From the NCBI GenBank assembly GCA_038245295.1, contig JBBRSP010000024.1, positions 20,877-84,876 on the forward strand: a DNA stretch of 64,000 nt, read 5' to 3'. The stretch is from Candidatus Binatia bacterium (GTDB lineage Bacteria; Desulfobacterota; Binatia; HRBIN30). The first letter of the stretch is position 1. Each line of letters opens with the position of its first letter. The notes beneath the pieces were generated by a model. The model saw only the letters and a program-made list of their open reading frames with translations, ran no database searches and was not told the DNA's origin. A program made the translations under genes and the position numbers. This document shows positions 42,043-58,167 of this stretch, in pieces.

Positions 42043-42810
42043 TCAGGCGATCCGTAACCTCGCCAAGCGCGACAACACACGTGCCGACACGTCGTTCCAC
42101 ACCAAGACGGAAAGCATCCACCACAAGACGATCCACAGCGGTACGCCGCCGAGCCAACCGAGGTGATACCGGTGTAGTCCGCCCACCTGAATGAAGAGCA
42201 CTTCGACCAGCGGCCCAACGGTTGCGGCCAGCGCCACGAGCCGTCTTTCCGGCGCCGTGATGCCAAACAACGCGGCGTAGGCGAGCAATCCGAGCCCGAA
42301 CGGCAACCAGGACAGGATCGGGGCAGTGTAATGCCGGTAGATCATCTGCCGCGTCACAATGACCAGTGTGAGCTCGATCGTGACACGCATGAGCGGTCGA
42401 TCGGGTTGAATGGGCCTGGCAACGGAGCGCCGTATGCGCTGGCAGAGGCTCGCGACAAAGCGCAGGATCATTCCCCAATACAGAAGCATCCAGAACGGGA
42501 TACGTCCCGCCGGCGGCACCGCGTAGTCGTAGATGCGGTGTCGCACCACCGAGTTCCAATCGTTGCCGGCTCCCAGCACCATACACAACGTGAAGAAGGC
42601 CAACTCGGCGCCGACGGAGAGTTCGCGTTCACTCAGCGGCAATCGGCTCCAAGCGCCGAAGCGTAAAGCCAGCACCGCCGGTACCAGCGCCGTCATGAGG
42701 GTTAGGCGATTGCTGGCCAGGCAGATCGCGACGCCGACCGCCGCCGTCGCAGCGGCGTCGATGGCAAAGACTCGCTCACCGTGCGGTGCTGGTTGCGGGT
42801 CTGCCGGCAT
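42043..42810 (-). CDS. Multi-pass membrane protein (DUF2878-like)
   Basis: About 8 hydrophobic segments; duplicated Y...G.(I/V)P.W(M/I).L.W motif. Confidence 0.7.
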   Translation of the reverse strand: MPADPQPAPHGERVFAIDAAATAAVGVAICLASNRLTLMTALVPAVLALRFGAWSRLPLSERELSVGAELAFFTLCMVLGAGNDWNSVVRHRIYDYAVPPAGRIPFWMLLYWGMILRFVASLCQRIRRSVARPIQPDRPLMRVTIELTLVIVTRQMIYRHYTAPILSWLPFGLGLLAYAALFGITAPERRLVALAATVGPLVEVLFIQVGGLHRYHLGWLGGVPLWIVLWWMLSVLVWNDVSARVLSRLARLRIA

Positions 42811-44080
42811 GACGTCTTCCCCGAACCAGGTCACTGATGTCACGAATCAGGCTCGTCGGATGTTCGAGACCGTAGGCGTAGGTGTCGGTCGAGTAGTTCT
42901 GCGCCCAGTTGCAGTTGGCGCCGCACTGCGCCGTTCCCGGACCGTGAAACCCGGTCGGATCGATGCGTCGCGCTGCATACGCATACATCGAGTCGACGTC
43001 GTCGAAGTCGAGCACGTTCACCCGTTCCGGCTGGACATGGACACTGGCTTTGCACGGCCAGAAGACCCGGCCATCGTGATCGATATGCGGCTTGAGCGTG
43101 TTGCGACAGGTGAGCGCTTCGGAGTGCAGGAGACGCTGCAGCAAACGGGCCGAGCCGGTGATCGGGTATCCCTGCGCTTTGCGCTCCAAGATGGTCTTGA
43201 CCAACGCGTTGTACTCGGAGTCGTGTCGCAGAGCAGCGTGAACCGCCGGGCCGGTGTTCATCGGCACCGGGCAAAAGGCGATACCGAGATCGTTGGCGAA
43301 GTCGAGCACGTCGCGCGCATGTGCGATTGCTTCGGGCTGAATCACCGTGTTGACCATGAGCTTGAAGCGCATGACCTCGGAGAGCTCGTGCAACAGCAGC
43401 AGATTGCGCAGCACCCTCTCCGGATGCGGATAGACCCACATGTCCTGCAGGGTTGGCAGGTGCAGGGCGTCGAGACTGACGATGATGATGTCGATGTCGG
43501 CCAGCCACGATCTCCAGGCATCCTGCTGCAGCAGGCTGTCGATCACGCTGCCGTTGGTGTTGATGAGAATCGGAAAGTAGTCGAGGTCACGTGCCGCGCG
43601 CGTCAGCTCCGGCAAGTCTTTACGCAAGGTCGGCTCACCGCCGGAAAAGTACACCGACGACGTACCGGTGCGCATGACACGAAGCAGACGAAGCCCCTCG
43701 TCGGTGCTGAGCGTACCGTCCTTGGGCAGCTCCGGGTAACACTGTCCGCGGTGGTCGTCGCAGTAGACGCAGCGGAAGTTGCACGTCCGCAGCAAGGTCC
43801 AGATGAAATACAACGGCCGCAGGTCTTCGCGGCCTTGCTTGAACAAGCGCCGATTGACGAGATAGTTGCCAGCGGCGGTGGCGTAGGCCCGTCGCCGCCG
43901 CCGCCATTCACCCCAACCGTTCCGCGGCACCTCGAGTCGAGGCAAGAGCTGATGGGCAAGACGCTTCGCTTCCGCCTGTAACTGCGGCCAGTCTGGATGA
44001 CCGCGAAGCGGCGAGTACAGGCGAAACTGCGGCAGACTCACCGGAGCGAAGACCCTTTTGACAGTCTCACCATACGCCAT
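42776..44080 (-). CDS. Radical SAM protein with C-terminal Cys cluster (twitch/SPASM-like)
   Basis: CNFRCVYC, FSGGEPTL, NTNG, VSLD, DGRVFWPC, CGANC. Confidence 0.88.
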   Translation of the reverse strand: MAYGETVKRVFAPVSLPQFRLYSPLRGHPDWPQLQAEAKRLAHQLLPRLEVPRNGWGEWRRRRRAYATAAGNYLVNRRLFKQGREDLRPLYFIWTLLRTCNFRCVYCDDHRGQCYPELPKDGTLSTDEGLRLLRVMRTGTSSVYFSGGEPTLRKDLPELTRAARDLDYFPILINTNGSVIDSLLQQDAWRSWLADIDIIIVSLDALHLPTLQDMWVYPHPERVLRNLLLLHELSEVMRFKLMVNTVIQPEAIAHARDVLDFANDLGIAFCPVPMNTGPAVHAALRHDSEYNALVKTILERKAQGYPITGSARLLQRLLHSEALTCRNTLKPHIDHDGRVFWPCKASVHVQPERVNVLDFDDVDSMYAYAARRIDPTGFHGPGTAQCGANCNWAQNYSTDTYAYGLEHPTSLIRDISDLVRGRRHAGRPATSTAR

Positions 44081-44401
44081 ATGCCTGTGTCTCGCAGGCA
44101 ACGTGCCAGTACGGCCGGGCTGCTGAATCCTGGGAAGACGCCTCCGGCTTTCTCATGCCTGGCAACGCGGCCACTGGCGTTTGGCGATGATTCGTGCACA
44201 GCGCGGGCTGAGGCCTGCAACCCAACGTCCCTGCACCCTGACCCTCCTCTGCGCCATCATCACGGCGCGGAGGAGGGTCCGTATACGGGTCGACAGTGCA
44301 CGATTCGAGCTTTCGAACATCGTCTGATACCTACCCTTATATGTCGCTCACTCCCAAATAGGGCGTTTAATGCAGGCTATCCCCTCGAGGAGAAACGCCC
44401 C

Positions 44402-47330: not shown

Positions 47331-47652
47331 TTTCGTCTTCCGGCCCGAATCCATCATCGTGTCAATTCGCATCGAGCATCCCTCCGTCGTCGACGCGCAA
47401 CTTGCATAGGTCCGACGACGCGACAACGCCGCCACCGGCCGAGGACCCGCCCGGGATGGTCGAACATGCTGTAAGCGGAGAGCCCTTAGGTAGCTCACGG
47501 CCAAATCGGGGGCGAGAAGGGGACGCGGACCTTGTGCGGAAATCCGGTATTCCCTGGAACCAATGAGGACATCTGGTGACGCTCTGCTTTCGGCGCCCAG
47601 AGACCTTACGACTTCGTTGCCGCGATACCGCCAAAATGGTAGGTTTCGTTCC

Positions 47653-47916
47653 ATGAAAACTACCATGGATTCCGCCGGACGCCTGGTAATCCCGAAGGAG
47701 TTACGCCGCGAGGCACGGCTTCAACCCGGAGCGCCTTTGGAGGTGCGATGGCGTGATGGCCGCATAGAGATAGAGCCGGCGCCTCTGCCGGTGACGCTGG
47801 AGAGACGCGGCAAACTCACGGTAGCCGTAGCGCCTCGTGCAATGCCGCCTCTGACGGCGGACGACGTCGAGCGGGTTCGTCGACAGACGCGCCGCGAACG
47901 CGGCGGGCGCGAATAA
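47653..47916 (+). CDS. AbrB/MazE/SpoVT family antitoxin
   Basis: MDSAGRLVIPKELRREARLQPG. Confidence 0.88.
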   Translation: MKTTMDSAGRLVIPKELRREARLQPGAPLEVRWRDGRIEIEPAPLPVTLERRGKLTVAVAPRAMPPLTADDVERVRRQTRRERGGRE

Positions 47917-47919
47917 CAG

Positions 47920-48351
47920 GTGCCGCGTTTCATGCTGGATACGAGCTGCATGGTGGCCGCGCTGTGCAGTTGGCATTCACACCACGAGCGTGTTGCGGCG
48001 GCGCTCCATCAGCGCCTGAAGCACCAGAGCATGATCGTCGCCGCACCAACACTGATCGAAACGTATGCGGTCCTCACCCGGTTGCCGCCACCGCATCGCC
48101 TCTCGCCGAGTGTTGCCCACCAACTGCTCGAAGCCAATTTTATCGGGGCGCCCACGGTCGTCACCCTCAACAGCTCCAGTTACCTCGCCATCCTCACCGG
48201 CGCGGCAAAGCGCTCGATCGCCGGCGGACGCACGTACGATGCCGTAATCGCGCAATGCGCGGTCGCGGGAAAAGCCAGCGCCCTCCTCACTCTCAACGAC
48301 TCCGACTTTCGCGCCCTCGCTATCCCGGATCTCGACATCGTCGTCCCGTAG
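47920..48351 (+). CDS. vapC: PIN-domain (VapC-like) toxin
   Basis: LDTSCMV, ETYAVLTRLP, GGRTYDAVIA, LTLNDSDF. Confidence 0.88.
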   Translation: MPRFMLDTSCMVAALCSWHSHHERVAAALHQRLKHQSMIVAAPTLIETYAVLTRLPPPHRLSPSVAHQLLEANFIGAPTVVTLNSSSYLAILTGAAKRSIAGGRTYDAVIAQCAVAGKASALLTLNDSDFRALAIPDLDIVVP

Positions 48352-48615: not shown

Positions 48616-50208
48616 TCATCGGTGCACCAGATGGTGACCGTCGCAGTGACCGATTCCGTAGCGCCAGGCATACGGGCGAAAGCGCAAGCCGCGACGCCGG
48701 CAAAACTCGCGGACTTCGTCGGAAAGCGCATCTTGTGCGCCGAAGACCCGTGAAGAGGTGAGATCGAAACAGGTGACGCCGGCGGGCAGATGGAGCGGCT
48801 GTGGTGCACCAAAGGCTAGGATGACCTGGCGGCCAGCAGGCAAGGGAAGCTCACCCCACTCGGGCAAGAAGCGTACATCCGCCGAGCCTGCGAGCGCCAG
48901 CTCGACACCGCCGTCGCAGTCGTGACGCTGCACCTTGAATCCACGTTCGCGCAGTGCGTTCGCCATCTCTGGCATGAGCTCATCGATGAGCATCTTCTTC
49001 TGTTCGGCCAGCGACGGGGCGCTGATGTGGCGGATCACTTGCGCCGGCACGCCTCCGACCATCGTCGAGGCAGCCACGTTGACGGCGACGAAGGAGTTGA
49101 CCATCACCGTCGCGCCGTCGGCAATGCTCACCCCGGGGAATACAAACGCCTGATTTCCAATGAACACGTGGTTGCCGACTTGAATCGGACCGAACAACGA
49201 GCGGTAGCCGCGCAGCACCGATTGCCAGTGACTGTGTGTGAACAGCATGGCACGCGAGCCAATGCACACCTCGTCGCCCAACGTGATCGGATGACAGGGG
49301 TTCAAGTAAGCGCCCTCGCCAAAGAAGCAGGCATCGCCGGCACGTAAGTGCGCCCCTGCCTCGTCGCTGCCGCCACCGCCGATCACCACGTCGTCTTTCG
49401 ACCACAGCGCTGCGCCGATCTCGATCGAACGACAACGGGCCCGCGTGCGCTTGCCGAAGGCGGCTAGCGGTCTGAGGCTAAGGCGCTCGCACTCGATGCT
49501 CGAATCGGCACCGATGATCACGCCGTCGCCGAGGTGTACCTCCGCCGCGAGTAGGATGGCGCCGCTGTCGAGGCGCACGTGCTCGCCGATGTCGGCACCG
49601 TGCTCGCGATAGAGGCGCAGCTTGAGGTCGGAGGAGAGCGCCCGGAAGGCATTCGAATCGCGTCGCAAGTCATCGAGAAAGGCGGCGTCGAGTCGACCCT
49701 TGGCTGGCGCCACACCGACGCGAACCGCCGCTTCGACGTCACTAGCGGTAATCTCGCCACGGACACCGCTGCCGTGAATCGAGTCCAACGCTACGCCGCA
49801 TTCGCCCGCCAATCGTCGTGCCGCCGGAGAAGCGGTCGGGCGACGTGCCGACGCCGCGGGCCGCACGCCGGTTTCGTTCAGTGTCGCCCGATCTGTCGGA
49901 TTCGACGCATCGGATGGATTTGCAAGGCCGTTCGACATCCCCAGCCAGGTTTCGCGGTCGGGAACGACTTCGTCGGCAGATCCGATGAAAGCTAGCACTT
50001 CGAGCACCGCGACTCGCTGGCCGACCGGGACGACAACTCTGCGTAAGATTCCGGACGTTTCAGCTTCGACTTCAACGTTGATCTTGTCGGTTTCGACCTC
50101 GAACAGCGGCTCGCCCGCCTGCACGGCGTCGCCTTCGACCTTCATCCAGCCGCGAATGACACCATGGGTCATGTTGGCGTCAAGGATCGGCAGAGTCACC
50201 GCTTGCAT
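48616..50208 (-). CDS. Lipoyl domain + E1/E3-binding domain + hexapeptide-repeat acyltransferase fusion
   Basis: EVETDKINVEVEA; ASPAARRLA..GSG.RGEIT.SDV; LbH with LFTHSH, IGNQAFVFPGVSI, GGVPAQVI. Confidence 0.85.
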   Translation of the reverse strand: MQAVTLPILDANMTHGVIRGWMKVEGDAVQAGEPLFEVETDKINVEVEAETSGILRRVVVPVGQRVAVLEVLAFIGSADEVVPDRETWLGMSNGLANPSDASNPTDRATLNETGVRPAASARRPTASPAARRLAGECGVALDSIHGSGVRGEITASDVEAAVRVGVAPAKGRLDAAFLDDLRRDSNAFRALSSDLKLRLYREHGADIGEHVRLDSGAILLAAEVHLGDGVIIGADSSIECERLSLRPLAAFGKRTRARCRSIEIGAALWSKDDVVIGGGGSDEAGAHLRAGDACFFGEGAYLNPCHPITLGDEVCIGSRAMLFTHSHWQSVLRGYRSLFGPIQVGNHVFIGNQAFVFPGVSIADGATVMVNSFVAVNVAASTMVGGVPAQVIRHISAPSLAEQKKMLIDELMPEMANALRERGFKVQRHDCDGGVELALAGSADVRFLPEWGELPLPAGRQVILAFGAPQPLHLPAGVTCFDLTSSRVFGAQDALSDEVREFCRRRGLRFRPYAWRYGIGHCDGHHLVHR

Positions 50209-51179
50209 GCGAACATCTCCTGCACGGTGCGCACGATATCGGCGCGCTGCGGCAGCGCCACCGGCTCGAGAGCCGGGCTGAACGGAATCGGCGTATCGGT
50301 TGCACCGATACGCCGGACTGGAGCATCGAGGTATTCGTAGGCATGCTCGGCAATCAGAGCGGCGATCTCGGCGCCGACACCACCCGTACGCGGCCCTTCT
50401 TCGATGCAGACGAGGCGCCCGGTCTTGCGCACCGAATCAACAACTGTGGCGACATCGAGTGGCGCCAGACTGCGCAAGTCAACGACTTCGGCATCGATGC
50501 CCAGCGCAGCCAGTTCCTCCGCCGCGGCCAGAGCCACACCAGTGTAGTACGAGTACGACACCAGGCTGACGTCGCTACCGCGGCGGCGCACGATGGCCCG
50601 ACCGAGCGACAGGCAGTAGTCTCCCTCCGGCACGTCACCAATACTCGCGTACAGGAGCTTGTGCTCGACGAACAACACCGGGTTGTCGTCGCGTATCGCC
50701 GCCGTCAGCAGACCCTTTGCATCGGCCGGCGTCGACGGTGCAACGACCTTGAGACCGGGCACGTGTAGAAACCAGGCTTCGAGACTTTGCGAGTGCGTCG
50801 CCCCATAACAGCGACCGCCGCCCGCCGGCGTACGGATGACCAGCGGCACGCGCGCCTGTGGGCCGTACATGTAGCGAAATTTGGCAGCGTGGTTGGTAAG
50901 CTGGTCCATCGCCAGCGTCAAGAAATCCATGAACATGATTTCGACCACCGGCCGCATGCCGGTGAGCGCCGCGCCGGTTGCCGCGCCGACAATGATGGCT
51001 TCCGAGATCGGTGTGCAACGCACGCGCTCCGGCCCGAACTCGTCGAGCAGCCCGCGTGTTACCCCGAAGGCGCCGCCATAGGCACCAATGTCTTCGCCCA
51101 TCAAGAACACCGTCGAATCTTGGCGCATGGCATCGCGAAGAGTTTCCTGCAGGGCCTGCCAGTAGGTGAGCTCACGCAT
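50196..51179 (-). CDS. 2-oxoacid/acetoin dehydrogenase E1 beta subunit
   Basis: MGEDIG.YGGAF, TPISE, EIMFMDF, ATHSQSLE, DLRSLAPLD. Confidence 0.93.
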   Translation of the reverse strand: MRELTYWQALQETLRDAMRQDSTVFLMGEDIGAYGGAFGVTRGLLDEFGPERVRCTPISEAIIVGAATGAALTGMRPVVEIMFMDFLTLAMDQLTNHAAKFRYMYGPQARVPLVIRTPAGGGRCYGATHSQSLEAWFLHVPGLKVVAPSTPADAKGLLTAAIRDDNPVLFVEHKLLYASIGDVPEGDYCLSLGRAIVRRRGSDVSLVSYSYYTGVALAAAEELAALGIDAEVVDLRSLAPLDVATVVDSVRKTGRLVCIEEGPRTGGVGAEIAALIAEHAYEYLDAPVRRIGATDTPIPFSPALEPVALPQRADIVRTVQEMFACKR

Positions 51180-51203
51180 ACGGACTGTCCCGCTCCGTCG
51201 AGT

Positions 51204-52181
51204 TCATTCCCTCGCCTCCGCAAACACGCCTTCCGTCGCTGCCGAGGGCGGCGGAAACGGGCTTGCTTGCGCAAAGTCGACAGCCGTATCGACAGCGGCG
51301 AGAGCTTGGCGCGCGAGAGCATCCAGCTCGGTGGCCTTATCCAATCCATTCTCGAGCATGGCTTCGCGCAATCGAATGATCGGGTCACGTTGGCGCCACG
51401 CCGCCTCTTCCTCACGCGAGCGGTAGACACGCTGGTCGCTCTTGGAGTGACCGAGAAAGCGATACGTCTTGCACTCGAGGAGCGTCGGCCCGCGGCCGGC
51501 ACGAGCCCGCTCGACGGCGCCTCGCATGGCATCGCGGACGACAACAACGTCCATGCCGTCGACTTGAACTCCGGGCATTCCGTAGCTCGCGGCGCGCTCG
51601 GCGAGCTGCTCGATCGCGCACGCTTGACGCACCGACGTGGACATCGCGTAGCCGTTGTTCTCGCAAACGAAAATCACCGGCAGATGCCAAAGCGCAGCTA
51701 GGTTGAGCGACTCGTGAAAGGTTCCCTGATTGGTCGCGCCGTCCCCGAAGAAAACGGCCACCACCTGGTCGGTACCACGCATCTTCGCCGACAGAGCGGC
51801 GCCGGTGCCGACGGGTATGCCGCCTCCGGTAATGCCGTTCGAACCGAGGTGGCCGACCGCGAAGTCGGCCATGTGCTGCGTGCCGCCCTTGCCGCCACCG
51901 TAACCAGCGATCTTGCCGAAAAGTTCGGCCATCAGCCGGTTGGGATCGCCGCCTTTAGCCAGCAGATGCCCGTGGCCGCGGTGCGTGCTGACCACCCAGT
52001 CGTCGCGCCGTAGAGGAAAGCAGGCGCCGACCGCGACCGCCTCCTGGCCGACGTACGGATGAGTCGTACCGCGGATGCTGCCATCGCTCACCAGCTTGAG
52101 CATGCGTTCTTCGAACGCACGAATGAGGAGCATGAGATGCATCATCTGGCGCCCCTCCGCGGTAGTCAGCGACAGGCTCAT
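51204..52181 (-). CDS. TPP-dependent dehydrogenase E1 alpha subunit
   Basis: GQEAVA, THRGHGH, GDGATNQG...ENN, TYRFLGHS. Confidence 0.93.
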   Translation of the reverse strand: MSLSLTTAEGRQMMHLMLLIRAFEERMLKLVSDGSIRGTTHPYVGQEAVAVGACFPLRRDDWVVSTHRGHGHLLAKGGDPNRLMAELFGKIAGYGGGKGGTQHMADFAVGHLGSNGITGGGIPVGTGAALSAKMRGTDQVVAVFFGDGATNQGTFHESLNLAALWHLPVIFVCENNGYAMSTSVRQACAIEQLAERAASYGMPGVQVDGMDVVVVRDAMRGAVERARAGRGPTLLECKTYRFLGHSKSDQRVYRSREEEAAWRQRDPIIRLREAMLENGLDKATELDALARQALAAVDTAVDFAQASPFPPPSAATEGVFAEARE

Positions 52182-52876
52182 CGCCGCCCCGCCTCGGGAA
52201 TCGTCGACAGTTCTTTCACCACTTCAAAAGCCTCGGCGTAACGCCGGCCCATCTGGAAGCCGCGATGCGCGGCGCGCCCACGGATGGCTTCGAGCCATTC
52301 CCGACCGTACCGCGACAGCTGCGTCTTGTAGGCTTCGAGACACGCCATCTTGGTGTCGATCGTATCGCTGATGTCGACGAACTTCTGGGCGCGGAACGAG
52401 TGGGGGGTGATGCCGCCGGGAATCGTCGCCTCATACATGTAGACCGAGCATAGGTTGCGCCGCGTCGCCGCCAGCACGGCGCGCGACAAGGCTACGTGCT
52501 CGGGATGGCTGTCGCCGAGCCATTGCGTGTAGACGGCGGTCGGGCGCTCGCGGCCGAGAAGCTCGTCGATCACCCCGACGAGATGGGCATTGGGCTGCAG
52601 CGCGTGCCGCGGCATACCCAAGCTCATGAGCTCAGCACCGAGCAAGCGAGCTGCTTCGTTGGCTTCGGCGCGCCGGTGCTCGCGCTGATCATGACAGCGG
52701 TCGTCGCGACCGCCGGGAACTCGAAAGTTCACCATTACTACCCGGTGACCGCGGTGTACGTAGGCGGCTATCGTTCCCCCGGCGCCGATTTCGGCGTCGT
52801 CAGGATGCGCACCGAAGACGATGACTCGCTCCGCACCATTGCCCGGAACAGAGCCGGTTGCTGGCGAGTCATCCAT
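52178..52876 (-). CDS. PIG-L/LmbE family N-acetylglycoside deacetylase
   Basis: AHPDDAE, DSHPEH, FVDIS..K..YKTQ, YAEAF. Confidence 0.9.
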   Translation of the reverse strand: MDDSPATGSVPGNGAERVIVFGAHPDDAEIGAGGTIAAYVHRGHRVVMVNFRVPGGRDDRCHDQREHRRAEANEAARLLGAELMSLGMPRHALQPNAHLVGVIDELLGRERPTAVYTQWLGDSHPEHVALSRAVLAATRRNLCSVYMYEATIPGGITPHSFRAQKFVDISDTIDTKMACLEAYKTQLSRYGREWLEAIRGRAAHRGFQMGRRYAEAFEVVKELSTIPEAGRR

Positions 52877-56877: not shown

Positions 56878-58167
56878 TTACGCTTGATGCGTGCGGCGGA
56901 TCTCGCGCATCAGGGCGATGTTGTCCGAGTGTCCGGTCTTGTGCGCCGTGATCTTGCCCTGCAGCGGTCGACCCAGAAGGTAGGAGTCGCCCATGATGTC
57001 GAGAATCTTGTGGCGCGCCAACTCGTCGGGGAAACGCAGCGTCGTATTCACGACCTTCTCGTCGTCGATGAGGATGAAGTTGTCGAGGCGACCGCCGTTG
57101 GCCAGACCCATCGAAGCCAGCGCCTTCATGTCCTTCAAGAAACCGAACGTGCGGGCCGGAGCGATTTCGTTGCGGAAGGACTGTGGACCGCGATGGTCGT
57201 AGGTGTAGTCCTGCGCCCCGACGGGGCGTGGGTAACGCAATTGATAGGTGATGCTGAATCCGTCGCTCGGCTCGATGGAAATCCACTCGCCGTCAGGATT
57301 GCCGACCAGCAAACGTTCGCGGATGACGATCGGCTCGGAGCGGGCGGCCTGATCTTCCCAACCGGCGCTGTCGAGCAGATCGCAGAAGGCGACCGCCGAG
57401 CCATCCATGATCGGCACTTCGCCCTGCATCTTCACCAGCAAGTTGGTGATGCCGTAGGCGTGACAGGTGGCGAGCAGATGTTCGATCGTCTTCGCCGTGA
57501 CGCCGTTGCGATGCAGGGTCGTGGCGTAGCCGGTCGAGTCGACCCAGGTGATGTCGGCCGGAACGATCTCGTCGGTCGACAAGCCGGTGAACTGGATGCC
57601 GCTGCCGGCGGCGAGCGGTTGCAGGATCAAGCCGGTTTTGACGCCGCTGTGCAGGCCGACGCCGCTCGCGACGACGCTGCGACGGATGGTGCGTTGACAG
57701 CGCGGTGTGCAGCCCGCGATGAGCGCGGGATCGCTGATGGAATCGGTATTCGTGGCCGGGCCGGGTGTATTGTCGCCGAGCGACTCTGTGGCGACGGAGG
57801 CGGGTTTGTGGTCGAGGGCGCGATTGACGACGCGCAAGAACGCGTCGAGGGAGAACGGCTTCTCGATGAAGTCGAAGGCGCCGAGGCGCGTTGCCTTGAC
57901 GGCGGTCTCGATGTTGCCGTGGCCGGAGATCATGATCACCGGCGGCGCCGACGGCTCTTCCTGTAGCTTCTCGAGCAGCTCCAAGCCGTCCATCTCCGGC
58001 ATCCAGATGTCGAGGATTACCAACTGCGGGCGTTCGCGCCGCACTGTCTCGAGCGCGGCGCGGCCGTCTTCGGCTTCGAGTACACGCAGGCCTTCTTCGG
58101 CGAGAATTCCGCGTAGCGAGGTGCGAATCTTTGGCTCATCGTCGACAACCAGAACGGTTTGCATCAT
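56878..58167 (-). CDS. lpxC: Receiver domain fused to UDP-3-O-acyl-N-acetylglucosamine deacetylase (REC-LpxC)
   Basis: REC: VVDDE, LDIWMP, ISGHG, EKPF. LpxC: QRTI..GVGLHSG, TIEHLL, EVPIMDGSA, ARTFGF, RHKILDIMGD, TGH. Confidence 0.92.
   Translation of the reverse strand: MMQTVLVVDDEPKIRTSLRGILAEEGLRVLEAEDGRAALETVRRERPQLVILDIWMPEMDGLELLEKLQEEPSAPPVIMISGHGNIETAVKATRLGAFDFIEKPFSLDAFLRVVNRALDHKPASVATESLGDNTPGPATNTDSISDPALIAGCTPRCQRTIRRSVVASGVGLHSGVKTGLILQPLAAGSGIQFTGLSTDEIVPADITWVDSTGYATTLHRNGVTAKTIEHLLATCHAYGITNLLVKMQGEVPIMDGSAVAFCDLLDSAGWEDQAARSEPIVIRERLLVGNPDGEWISIEPSDGFSITYQLRYPRPVGAQDYTYDHRGPQSFRNEIAPARTFGFLKDMKALASMGLANGGRLDNFILIDDEKVVNTTLRFPDELARHKILDIMGDSYLLGRPLQGKITAHKTGHSDNIALMREIRRTHQA

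Follow-up and report, generated by a model that had tools for sequence, protein, structure and literature searches.

Organisation of the operon

The window analysed, a 64,000-nucleotide stretch of contig JBBRSP010000024.1 from a Candidatus Binatia bacterium, contains at positions 48616..52876 one packed operon of four genes, all on the minus strand: a PIG-L deacetylase gene, the genes for the two subunits of a thiamine diphosphate (ThDP)-dependent E1 enzyme (E1alpha and E1beta), and a gene for a fusion protein which joins a lipoyl domain to a long left-handed beta-helix (LbH) acyltransferase. The PIG-L and E1alpha genes overlap by 4 bp (ATGA), E1alpha and E1beta are separated by 24 bp, and E1beta and the fusion gene overlap by 13 bp. 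An earlier note on this DNA had described four co-oriented, packed or overlapping genes, and the open reading frames are where it placed them. A scan for promoters and terminators of the operon gave nothing above shuffles, and no RNA holder is listed for it.

The first gene (52178..52876, 232 aa) encodes a PIG-L/LmbE-family zinc de-N-acetylase similar to BshB and MshB (PF02585, E 1.5e-20), with intact HPDD and DxHxEH metal-site motifs. It scores 97.8 bits with the BshB1 model TIGR04001, under the cut-off of 182.5, and is below all named PIG-L-type cut-offs; its His-x-Asp-Asp and later His are invariant in 16/16 aligned partners and align with those of solved BshB/LmbE proteins. The E1alpha (51204..52181, 325 aa; PF00676, 4e-90) has the GDG...NN motif and His245 intact, carries T39, Q102, S114 and K247, and shows 366.9 bits with the pyruvate dehydrogenase (PDH) model TIGR03182, under the cut-off of 393.85. 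The E1beta (50196..51179, 327 aa) contains the transketolase pyrimidine-binding and C-terminal domains (PF02779 and PF02780) and the His of a GATHSQ motif, and passes the cut-off of NF006667, a PDH E1beta subfamily.

The fusion protein (48616..50208, 530 aa; Biotin_lipoyl, E3_binding and Hexapep/Hexapep_2) shows, from its N-terminus, a lipoyl domain (residues 5-73, 49990..50196; PF00364) with an ETDK motif at residues 39-42 and Lys42 encoded at 50085-50083, a linker, a peripheral subunit-binding domain (PSBD; residues 126-159, 49732..49833; PF02817, E 1.9e-11), an LbH acyltransferase (approximately residues 200-394, 49027..49611) with Thr324, His325 (codon 49236-49234) and an NS.V...GVPA end, and a C-terminal alpha/beta domain of no known family (residues 392-530, 48619..49026) with a conserved basic motif, R..LR..G. 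The operon thus contains several parts of a PDH complex: E1alpha and E1beta with ThDP motif, a lipoyl domain with its Lys, and a PSBD. The E2 catalytic domain PF00198 has no Pfam match in the window fusion, and the E2 motif DH[RS]xxDG is found in 0/201 aligned family members, which bears out the earlier description of an E2 core replaced by LbH and an unassigned C-terminal domain. The fusion does not belong to NeuD/PglD either: TIGR03570 gives 49.1 against a cut-off of 160.8, and PF17836 (PglD_N) has no match.

Conservation and fold of the fusion protein

The lipoyl-LbH fusion is a wide family. The lipoyl, LbH and C-terminal domains are present together in 98 among the 120 matches listed of the first search (query included) and in 103 among the 150 representatives of 50% clusters listed; in 78 among the latter the PSBD was detected with the other three domains, and 33 show LbH and C-terminal domain without lipoyl domain, as fragments or stand-alone forms. 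Source names include Binatia, Chloroflexi, Saganbacteria, Planctomycetes and Clostridiaceae; scans of viral_contigs gave no relatives. In a set of 108 full-length members, most of them non-redundant, Lys42 is conserved in 105, His325 in 107, and Thr324, Gly386 and Pro388 in all 108: the arm is under selection at its two ends, Lys42 and Thr324/His325. Reading the lipoyl domain as a biotin carrier was rejected, as the biotin-type MKM is found in 0/108 members. In one member, P0099 (747 aa), an inserted NeuD-like domain separates the PSBD from the long LbH.

In Foldseek, the lipoyl domain matches solved lipoyl domains, and the full fusion model retrieves only lipoyl/biotinyl domains. The hexapeptide repeats form a beta-helix according to Pfam, structure comparison and the model, and the closest solved relatives of the LbH are maltose/galactoside O-acetyltransferases (best E 1.7e-13). 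The full model, a monomer, has a pLDDT of 76.8 with the His loop disordered. The C-terminal domain, which is also present in lipoyl-free relatives, has a confident fold when modelled alone (pLDDT 90.7) and appears from the model to be well folded, with no clear counterpart among structures: the best VIA Z is 4.6 and Foldseek gives none at E<=0.001, although a weak or missing match is no proof of a new fold. A predicted complex of the lipoyl domain and three LbH copies scored 0.00 with its controls not folded, and carries no weight as evidence.

Distribution in the class and host genome

The source genome is 96.6% complete and its relatives are labelled Binatia. The fusion is present in 15/301 genomes of the class, always in the order of the window. 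Seventeen loci were examined, of which 11 reach far enough upstream to be informative: the order PIG-L, E1alpha, E1beta and fusion is kept in 11/11, so the linkage is not due to chance, and E1beta is visible in 4/6 short loci. The earlier note had made its reading depend on conservation of the fusion and the four-gene linkage elsewhere, and both are conserved. Close orthologues of PIG-L (at least 64% identity) and E1alpha (at least 68%) are present in 13/14 fusion-positive relatives and in none of the fusion-negative genomes among the 301, figures which are not a statistical test since these genomes are kin. The genome of the remaining positive relative is 85% complete, and its contig breaks off within E1alpha; a weak extra E1alpha (52% identity, internal stop) is found in genome G251.

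The source genome contains housekeeping aceE-aceF-lpd (contig C3) and sucA-sucB-lpd (C6) loci, with aceE and sucA named from sequence, and lipA (C12). It has two ordinary E2 and E3 loci, and its single alpha2beta2-type E1alpha is that of the window. The earlier statement that no E2 or E3 is present therefore holds for the operon but not for the genome, and E3 and lipoyl synthase are available in trans. Since the housekeeping PDH is complete, the operon is not the acetyl-CoA supply of the cell, and the possibility raised earlier that the complex simply produces acetyl-CoA is unlikely.

Directly after the fusion gene, a PF01553 acyltransferase gene is present in 6/15 Binatia loci with downstream DNA, often followed by an alpha/beta hydrolase and an F420-LLM gene. 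Loci L051 (1763-5910), L037 and L041 show these PlsC-like acyltransferase, alpha/beta hydrolase and F420-LLM genes. Close to the operon in L051 and L053 is a gene which we take, from its sequence, to encode an inositol-1-phosphate-synthase-like protein, a lead to a glycolipid or GlcNAc-inositol acceptor. Loci L051 and L054 are labelled Margulisiibacteriota and Patescibacteria, respectively; their copies are Binatia-like (56-64% identity), and they are probably mislabelled or misbinned.

Genomic context of distant copies

Twenty-six metagenome loci, chosen by one motif of another, distant subfamily and many of them on short contigs, were read; gene calls in these and the other loci come from a simple scorer, whose starts may be off. 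PIG-L is present in 12/26 and NeuB or NeuC in 13/26, and E1beta lies directly upstream of the fusion in 14/17 loci having at least 650 bp upstream. Among 42 selected neighbours, LegB, LegC, NeuB, NeuC, NeuD and PseB are above NCBIfam cut-offs in several loci. In a Chloroflexota copy (L055), the fusion is located between a UDP-GlcNAc 3-dehydrogenase-like gene and a pair of LbH and DegT genes, among glycosyltransferases. The amino-sugar loci (legionaminic, pseudaminic and other) around distant copies, with E1 and PIG-L, support a deacetylate-then-re-acylate role. Several loci retain a separate NeuD (NCBIfam); this, and the futility of re-adding acetyl after deacetylation, supports exchange for an acyl group other than acetyl. 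The polysaccharide-locus neighbours that the earlier note suggested looking for are thus present around distant copies, and are missing around the window operon, which has no sugar genes beside it and lies in a genome without NeuB match.

Two loci show particular arrangements. L083 (1389-11780) is a phage-like contig with terminase and SPP1-type portal genes, which also contains PseB, a PseC-like gene, a formyltransferase gene and E1alpha/beta; here the module is split into a free 74-aa lipoyl gene, LbH-C (LbH with the C-terminal domain) and PIG-L, followed by the start of a NeuB/PseI-like gene. It is possibly a phage-borne nonulosonate-modifying pathway. In L059 (1-12914), a single nonulosonate locus, the two fusion types are accompanied by separate E1s: lipoyl-NeuD by a fused E1alpha-beta, and lipoyl-LbH-C by E1alpha and E1beta. 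This double set suggests that one sugar receives two different kinds of acyl group.

E1alpha lineage and acyl donor

The E1alpha of L080, a Leg-cluster locus, has as best plasmid match RenH of the renieramycin cluster. In the accessible text of PMC13249901, RenH/I are assigned by homology to the Qcn reaction, which converts ketoses to a glycolyl unit, and the accessible part of PMC6335953 gives the same ketose-to-glycolyl account for QncN/L and SclQ. An alignment of 27 E1alpha rows contains five of the window clade, 11 of the RenH clade and 11 others. Q102 and S114 are common to the window and RenH clades and found in 0/11 other rows; T39 and K247 (R or T in two rows) are common to both clades and to five E1s of E1/E2/E3 operons, several of which lie beside sugar transporters. 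In four PDH/AcoA references the residues at positions T39, Q102, S114 and K247 are F, M, A/G and M/F, respectively, and human PDH agrees. A Thr replacing Phe at position 39 presumably gives room for a hydroxymethyl group. Since the four signature residues are common to RenH and differ in PDH/AcoA, the donor is more likely a ketose than pyruvate.

A quick tree places the window E1alpha clade between that of RenH and all others (SH-aLRT 90), and the E1s of nonulosonate-cluster relatives fall in one clade with RenH. The approximately unbiased (AU) test, with groups named after the tree had been seen, rejects a grouping of the window clade with PDH/AcoA (p 0.0025). A quick tree of E1beta did not resolve the grouping, and a mapping of T39 onto the substrate pocket was not obtainable from the accessible part of PMC2663715. 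Judged from the sequences, both E1 neighbours, the RenH clade and the sugar-operon E1s, point to a sugar-derived donor. Of the two acyl sources proposed earlier, a 2-oxoacid or a ketose on ThDP, the E1alpha residues and the AU test favour the ketose, and pyruvate is less favoured.

Plasmids of Aminobacter, Clostridioides, Brevibacillus, Priestia and Rhizobium (L086-L090) contain operons annotated as PDH or acetoin dehydrogenase with GT[TM]H and HSKSD motifs, and 4/5 are beside PTS/ABC sugar genes or sugar-binding regulators. From their sequences, these operons may encode catabolic ketose dehydrogenase complexes that produce glycolyl-CoA; the literature search found no paper on such complexes. 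The plasmid pSCAT of Streptantibioticus cattleyicolor (L085, 1-8976) shows unannotated PKS-like, FabH-like and ACP-like genes with RenH-type E1alpha/beta and an ordinary E2, and is likely a glycolyl-using cluster.

Partners of PIG-L and a second lipoyl fusion

The lipoyl-free LbH-C has two further matches in 401 Chloroflexota genomes, both immediately following PIG-L, in the polysaccharide loci L094 and L095, which have no E1. The lipoyl-free form is also present on 16 Streptomyces plasmids; two of these regions were read, and PIG-L adjoins it in one (L056) and lies 7 kb from it in the other (L057). A sister PIG-L (50-52% identity) was found in 13 genomes of other families of the class, which have no fusion match, and in 4/6 loci fetched it is directly behind an ATP-grasp ligase gene; that of L118 lies in a polysaccharide locus. 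A second architecture, lipoyl-PglD_N-Hexapep, in which the arm is attached to a member of an amino-sugar N-acyltransferase family, was found in several Atlas clusters by a search with the homologue P0007, and as four full-length proteins among eight matches in 301 Chloroflexota genomes. It is directly behind E1 genes in 5/5 wide loci read (L059 and L104-L107), and the L059 protein is a NeuD/PglD by its PglD_N domain and a TIGR03570 score above cut-off. The simplest reading of this gene context is that PIG-L would free an amine and an interchangeable partner would install another acyl group, the fusion being a partner that gained its own acyl generator.

The conserved ATP-grasp and PIG-L pair is located near GT4 genes in L116 (7392-8985), L118 (8260-9814), L119 (7492-9056) and L121 (8718-10310); in L118 and L121, ComA-like and argininosuccinate-lyase-like genes are also near the pair.

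Proposed function and alternatives

From the observed anatomy, linkage, motifs, sugar context of relatives and E1 signature we infer a chemistry in which the operon is an acyl-swap machine: the acetyl group on an amino sugar would be replaced by another acyl group, likely glycolyl, probably without CoA. We give this an even chance. PIG-L would strip the N-acetyl from an amino-sugar unit, E1 would cleave a ketose phosphate on ThDP, and the oxidised lipoyl arm on Lys42 would be reductively glycolylated to a glycolyl thioester. The arm would then swing to the LbH site, where the freed amine would receive the glycolyl by direct transfer, probably with no CoA involved, and with His325 as the predicted base activating the amine; the PSBD would bind E1 and borrow the housekeeping E3, which would re-oxidise the arm. 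Within this acyl-swap reading, a ketose giving glycolyl is the somewhat more probable donor, the other being a hydroxylated donor such as hydroxypyruvate. In many distant relatives, a Leg/Pse/Neu or 2,3-diamino-sugar precursor is the probable acceptor. A nonulosonate acceptor was rejected for Binatia, as NeuB is missing from the source genome and from 13/14 positive relatives; several DegT/Gfo amino-sugar loci are present elsewhere in the source genome. Of the CoA-independent system of deacetylation and re-acylation which had been proposed earlier, the conserved fusion and linkage and the amino-sugar loci of relatives support the outline, and CoA independence, donor and acceptor are its conjectural part.

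Several observations weigh against the acyl swap. The window operon has no flanking sugar genes and the Binatia operons are in varied surroundings without them, and NeuB was not found in the genomes just named. The metagenome loci were, as described above, selected by a motif of another subfamily; 3/17 show no upstream E1, namely L066 and the pair L063 and L065, which duplicate a single, apparently broken locus; and L055 has no PIG-L within 10 kb. The window E1alpha lies beside the RenH clade but outside it (SH-aLRT 100 on the RenH clade); its top plasmid matches in tblastn are E1/E2/E3 operons beside sugar transporters or regulators, not RenH; its grouping with the sugar-operon E1s is only marginally rejected (AU p 0.044, with groups named after the tree); and the role of RenH is itself assigned by homology. 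In the LbH, the His of maltose acetyltransferase-like structures, which we take to be the catalytic one of that family, aligns to H327 (kept in 19/108) and not to H325 (107/108), so the active site would be shifted or remodelled, and the NS.V...GxPA end common to acetyl-CoA-using LbH enzymes is retained.

This CoA-user-type end also favours the main rival explanation, which is unlikely although the best of the alternatives: that the LbH is a convergent E2 core, passing the lipoyl acyl group to CoA (for example as glycolyl-CoA), and that a separate NeuD/WbpD-like or PlsC-like transferase acylates the sugar or lipid. Genes like NeuD or WbpD adjoin the fusion in L055 and L069 and are at most 3 kb from the module in L071 and L080, and the PF01553 gene which follows the fusion in some Binatia loci would fit as well. 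The window operon and most Binatia operons, however, show no second transferase, an E2 role would be senseless for the lipoyl-free LbH-C beside PIG-L without E1, and the acceptor suggested by the parallel lipoyl-PglD fusion is a sugar.

That the module is a CoA-independent acetyltransferase is quite unlikely. Here pyruvate or acetoin would give acetyl-lipoyl for O- or N-acetylation of a glycan elsewhere, PIG-L being a mere neighbour or acting at another site. The best family scores are those of PDH E1 models, the STHRGHGH of the window E1alpha is common to acetoin-dehydrogenase references, and the closest solved relatives of the LbH are O-acetyltransferases; against these stand the change from Phe to Thr and the three others from PDH/AcoA, the AU rejection of that grouping, the tight co-occurrence of PIG-L with the operon, and the acetyl-CoA already supplied. 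Likewise improbable, and ranked after it, is a redeployment of the Binatia operon away from surface polysaccharide, in which it would modify or degrade a small GlcNAc-containing metabolite or glycolipid, or detoxify a compound. The free-standing operon in varied surroundings without NeuB, the BshB-like PIG-L, the PlsC-like, alpha/beta-hydrolase and F420-LLM genes that follow in some loci, and the catabolic look of the nearest E1 relatives agree with it, but no transporter or regulator is conserved beside the operon, sister PIG-Ls are near GT4 glycosyltransferases or, in L118, in a polysaccharide locus, and redeployment would touch the chemistry less than the acceptor. That the operon is a supernumerary PDH or acetoin dehydrogenase of ordinary type supplying acetyl-CoA, or a chance fusion, is very improbable and already largely refuted in spite of the E1beta score above the PDH cut-off: the E2 catalytic domain is found in 0/201 members, the architecture is conserved across more than 100 clusters, and relatives show a sugar-pathway context.

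Relation to known systems

The diversion of E1-lipoyl chemistry into biosynthesis is already known, and the fusion module fails membership of PDH, QncN/L and NeuD. According to the accessible text of PMC6335953 and PMC13249901, QncN/QncL/QncM, SclQ1-4 and RenH/RenI likewise divert an E1-type ThDP enzyme and a lipoyl domain to biosynthesis, and RenH has the four signature residues of the window E1alpha; they differ in their classical PF00198 E2 core (RenI, L085) and in loading an ACP or PCP for nonribosomal peptide synthesis, whereas the window operon has LbH and the new domain as core, no carrier gene and a linked deacetylase. In the pepteridine pathway, as far as the accessible text of PMC5384830 goes, the E2-T-C fusion Plu2796 and an E1 are similarly proposed to convert an E1-derived acyl group to an amide without acyl-CoA, borrowing the host E3, but with an E2-like subunit, thiolation and condensation domains and a pterin acceptor. 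The alpha2beta2 complexes of PDH and AcoABCL share E1alpha, E1beta, lipoyl domain and PSBD in the usual order; the window operon has neither E2 catalytic domain nor E3, and its E1alpha signature residues are altered. LbH sugar acyltransferases (maltose/galactoside acetyltransferase, WcaF, NeuD/PglD and LpxA/LpxD) share the beta-helix repeats, the His-bearing loop and the GxPA end, and LpxA/LpxD take acyl groups from a protein carrier; in the window LbH the helix is much longer, the conserved His comes two residues sooner, and a C-terminal domain and a tethered lipoyl arm are added. PIG-L/LmbE de-N-acetylases (BshB, MshB and diacetylchitobiose deacetylase) show the same intact metal-site motifs, with the window protein below their named cut-offs. 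Acinetobacter LgaI was dropped as a deacetylase parallel, as the accessible part of PMC3628348 calls it an acetyltransferase. The front of the module probably functions as QncN/L does, and its end as PglD does.

The accessible part of PMC5378307 states that the genes adding N-glyceroyl or possibly N-glycolyl to bacterial pseudaminic and legionaminic acids were unidentified as of 2017, and the module offers a concrete candidate chemistry for the N-glycolyl case. If the acyl swap is true, the lipoyl thioester is added as acyl donor for beta-helix transferases, QncN-type ketose hijacking extends from peptide antibiotics to glycans, and many "pyruvate dehydrogenase" annotations in polysaccharide loci have to be corrected. 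More tentatively, and with rather less confidence than the swap itself, bacteria may possess a widespread route, independent of oxygen and CoA, to amino sugars and sialic-acid-like nonulosonates that bear N-glycolyl or other N-hydroxyacyl groups; the route would proceed via ketose cleavage, use the lipoyl arm as a third LbH donor besides CoA and ACP, and replace the N-acetyl removed by PIG-L; it would be a plug-in module, fused to two sugar acyltransferases and present on one phage-like contig. No paper on a lipoyl-LbH fusion, a deacetylase-partnered lipoyl LbH or E1 genes in nonulosonate clusters was found in a search which covered few subscription journals and no supplements.

Other genes of the window

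Upstream of the operon lies a GFA-family gene, and downstream a MazE/PIN pair, neither conserved beside it in relatives. The latter, directly after the operon (47563-48351), encodes a MazE/AbrB-type antitoxin and a PIN-domain toxin. Positions 42043-44101 contain a radical SAM gene (PF04055) followed by a gene for a membrane protein without Pfam match, and a 429-aa open reading frame (56878-58167) behind an NtrY-like kinase gene appears from its sequence to fuse a response-regulator receiver to an LpxC-like domain.

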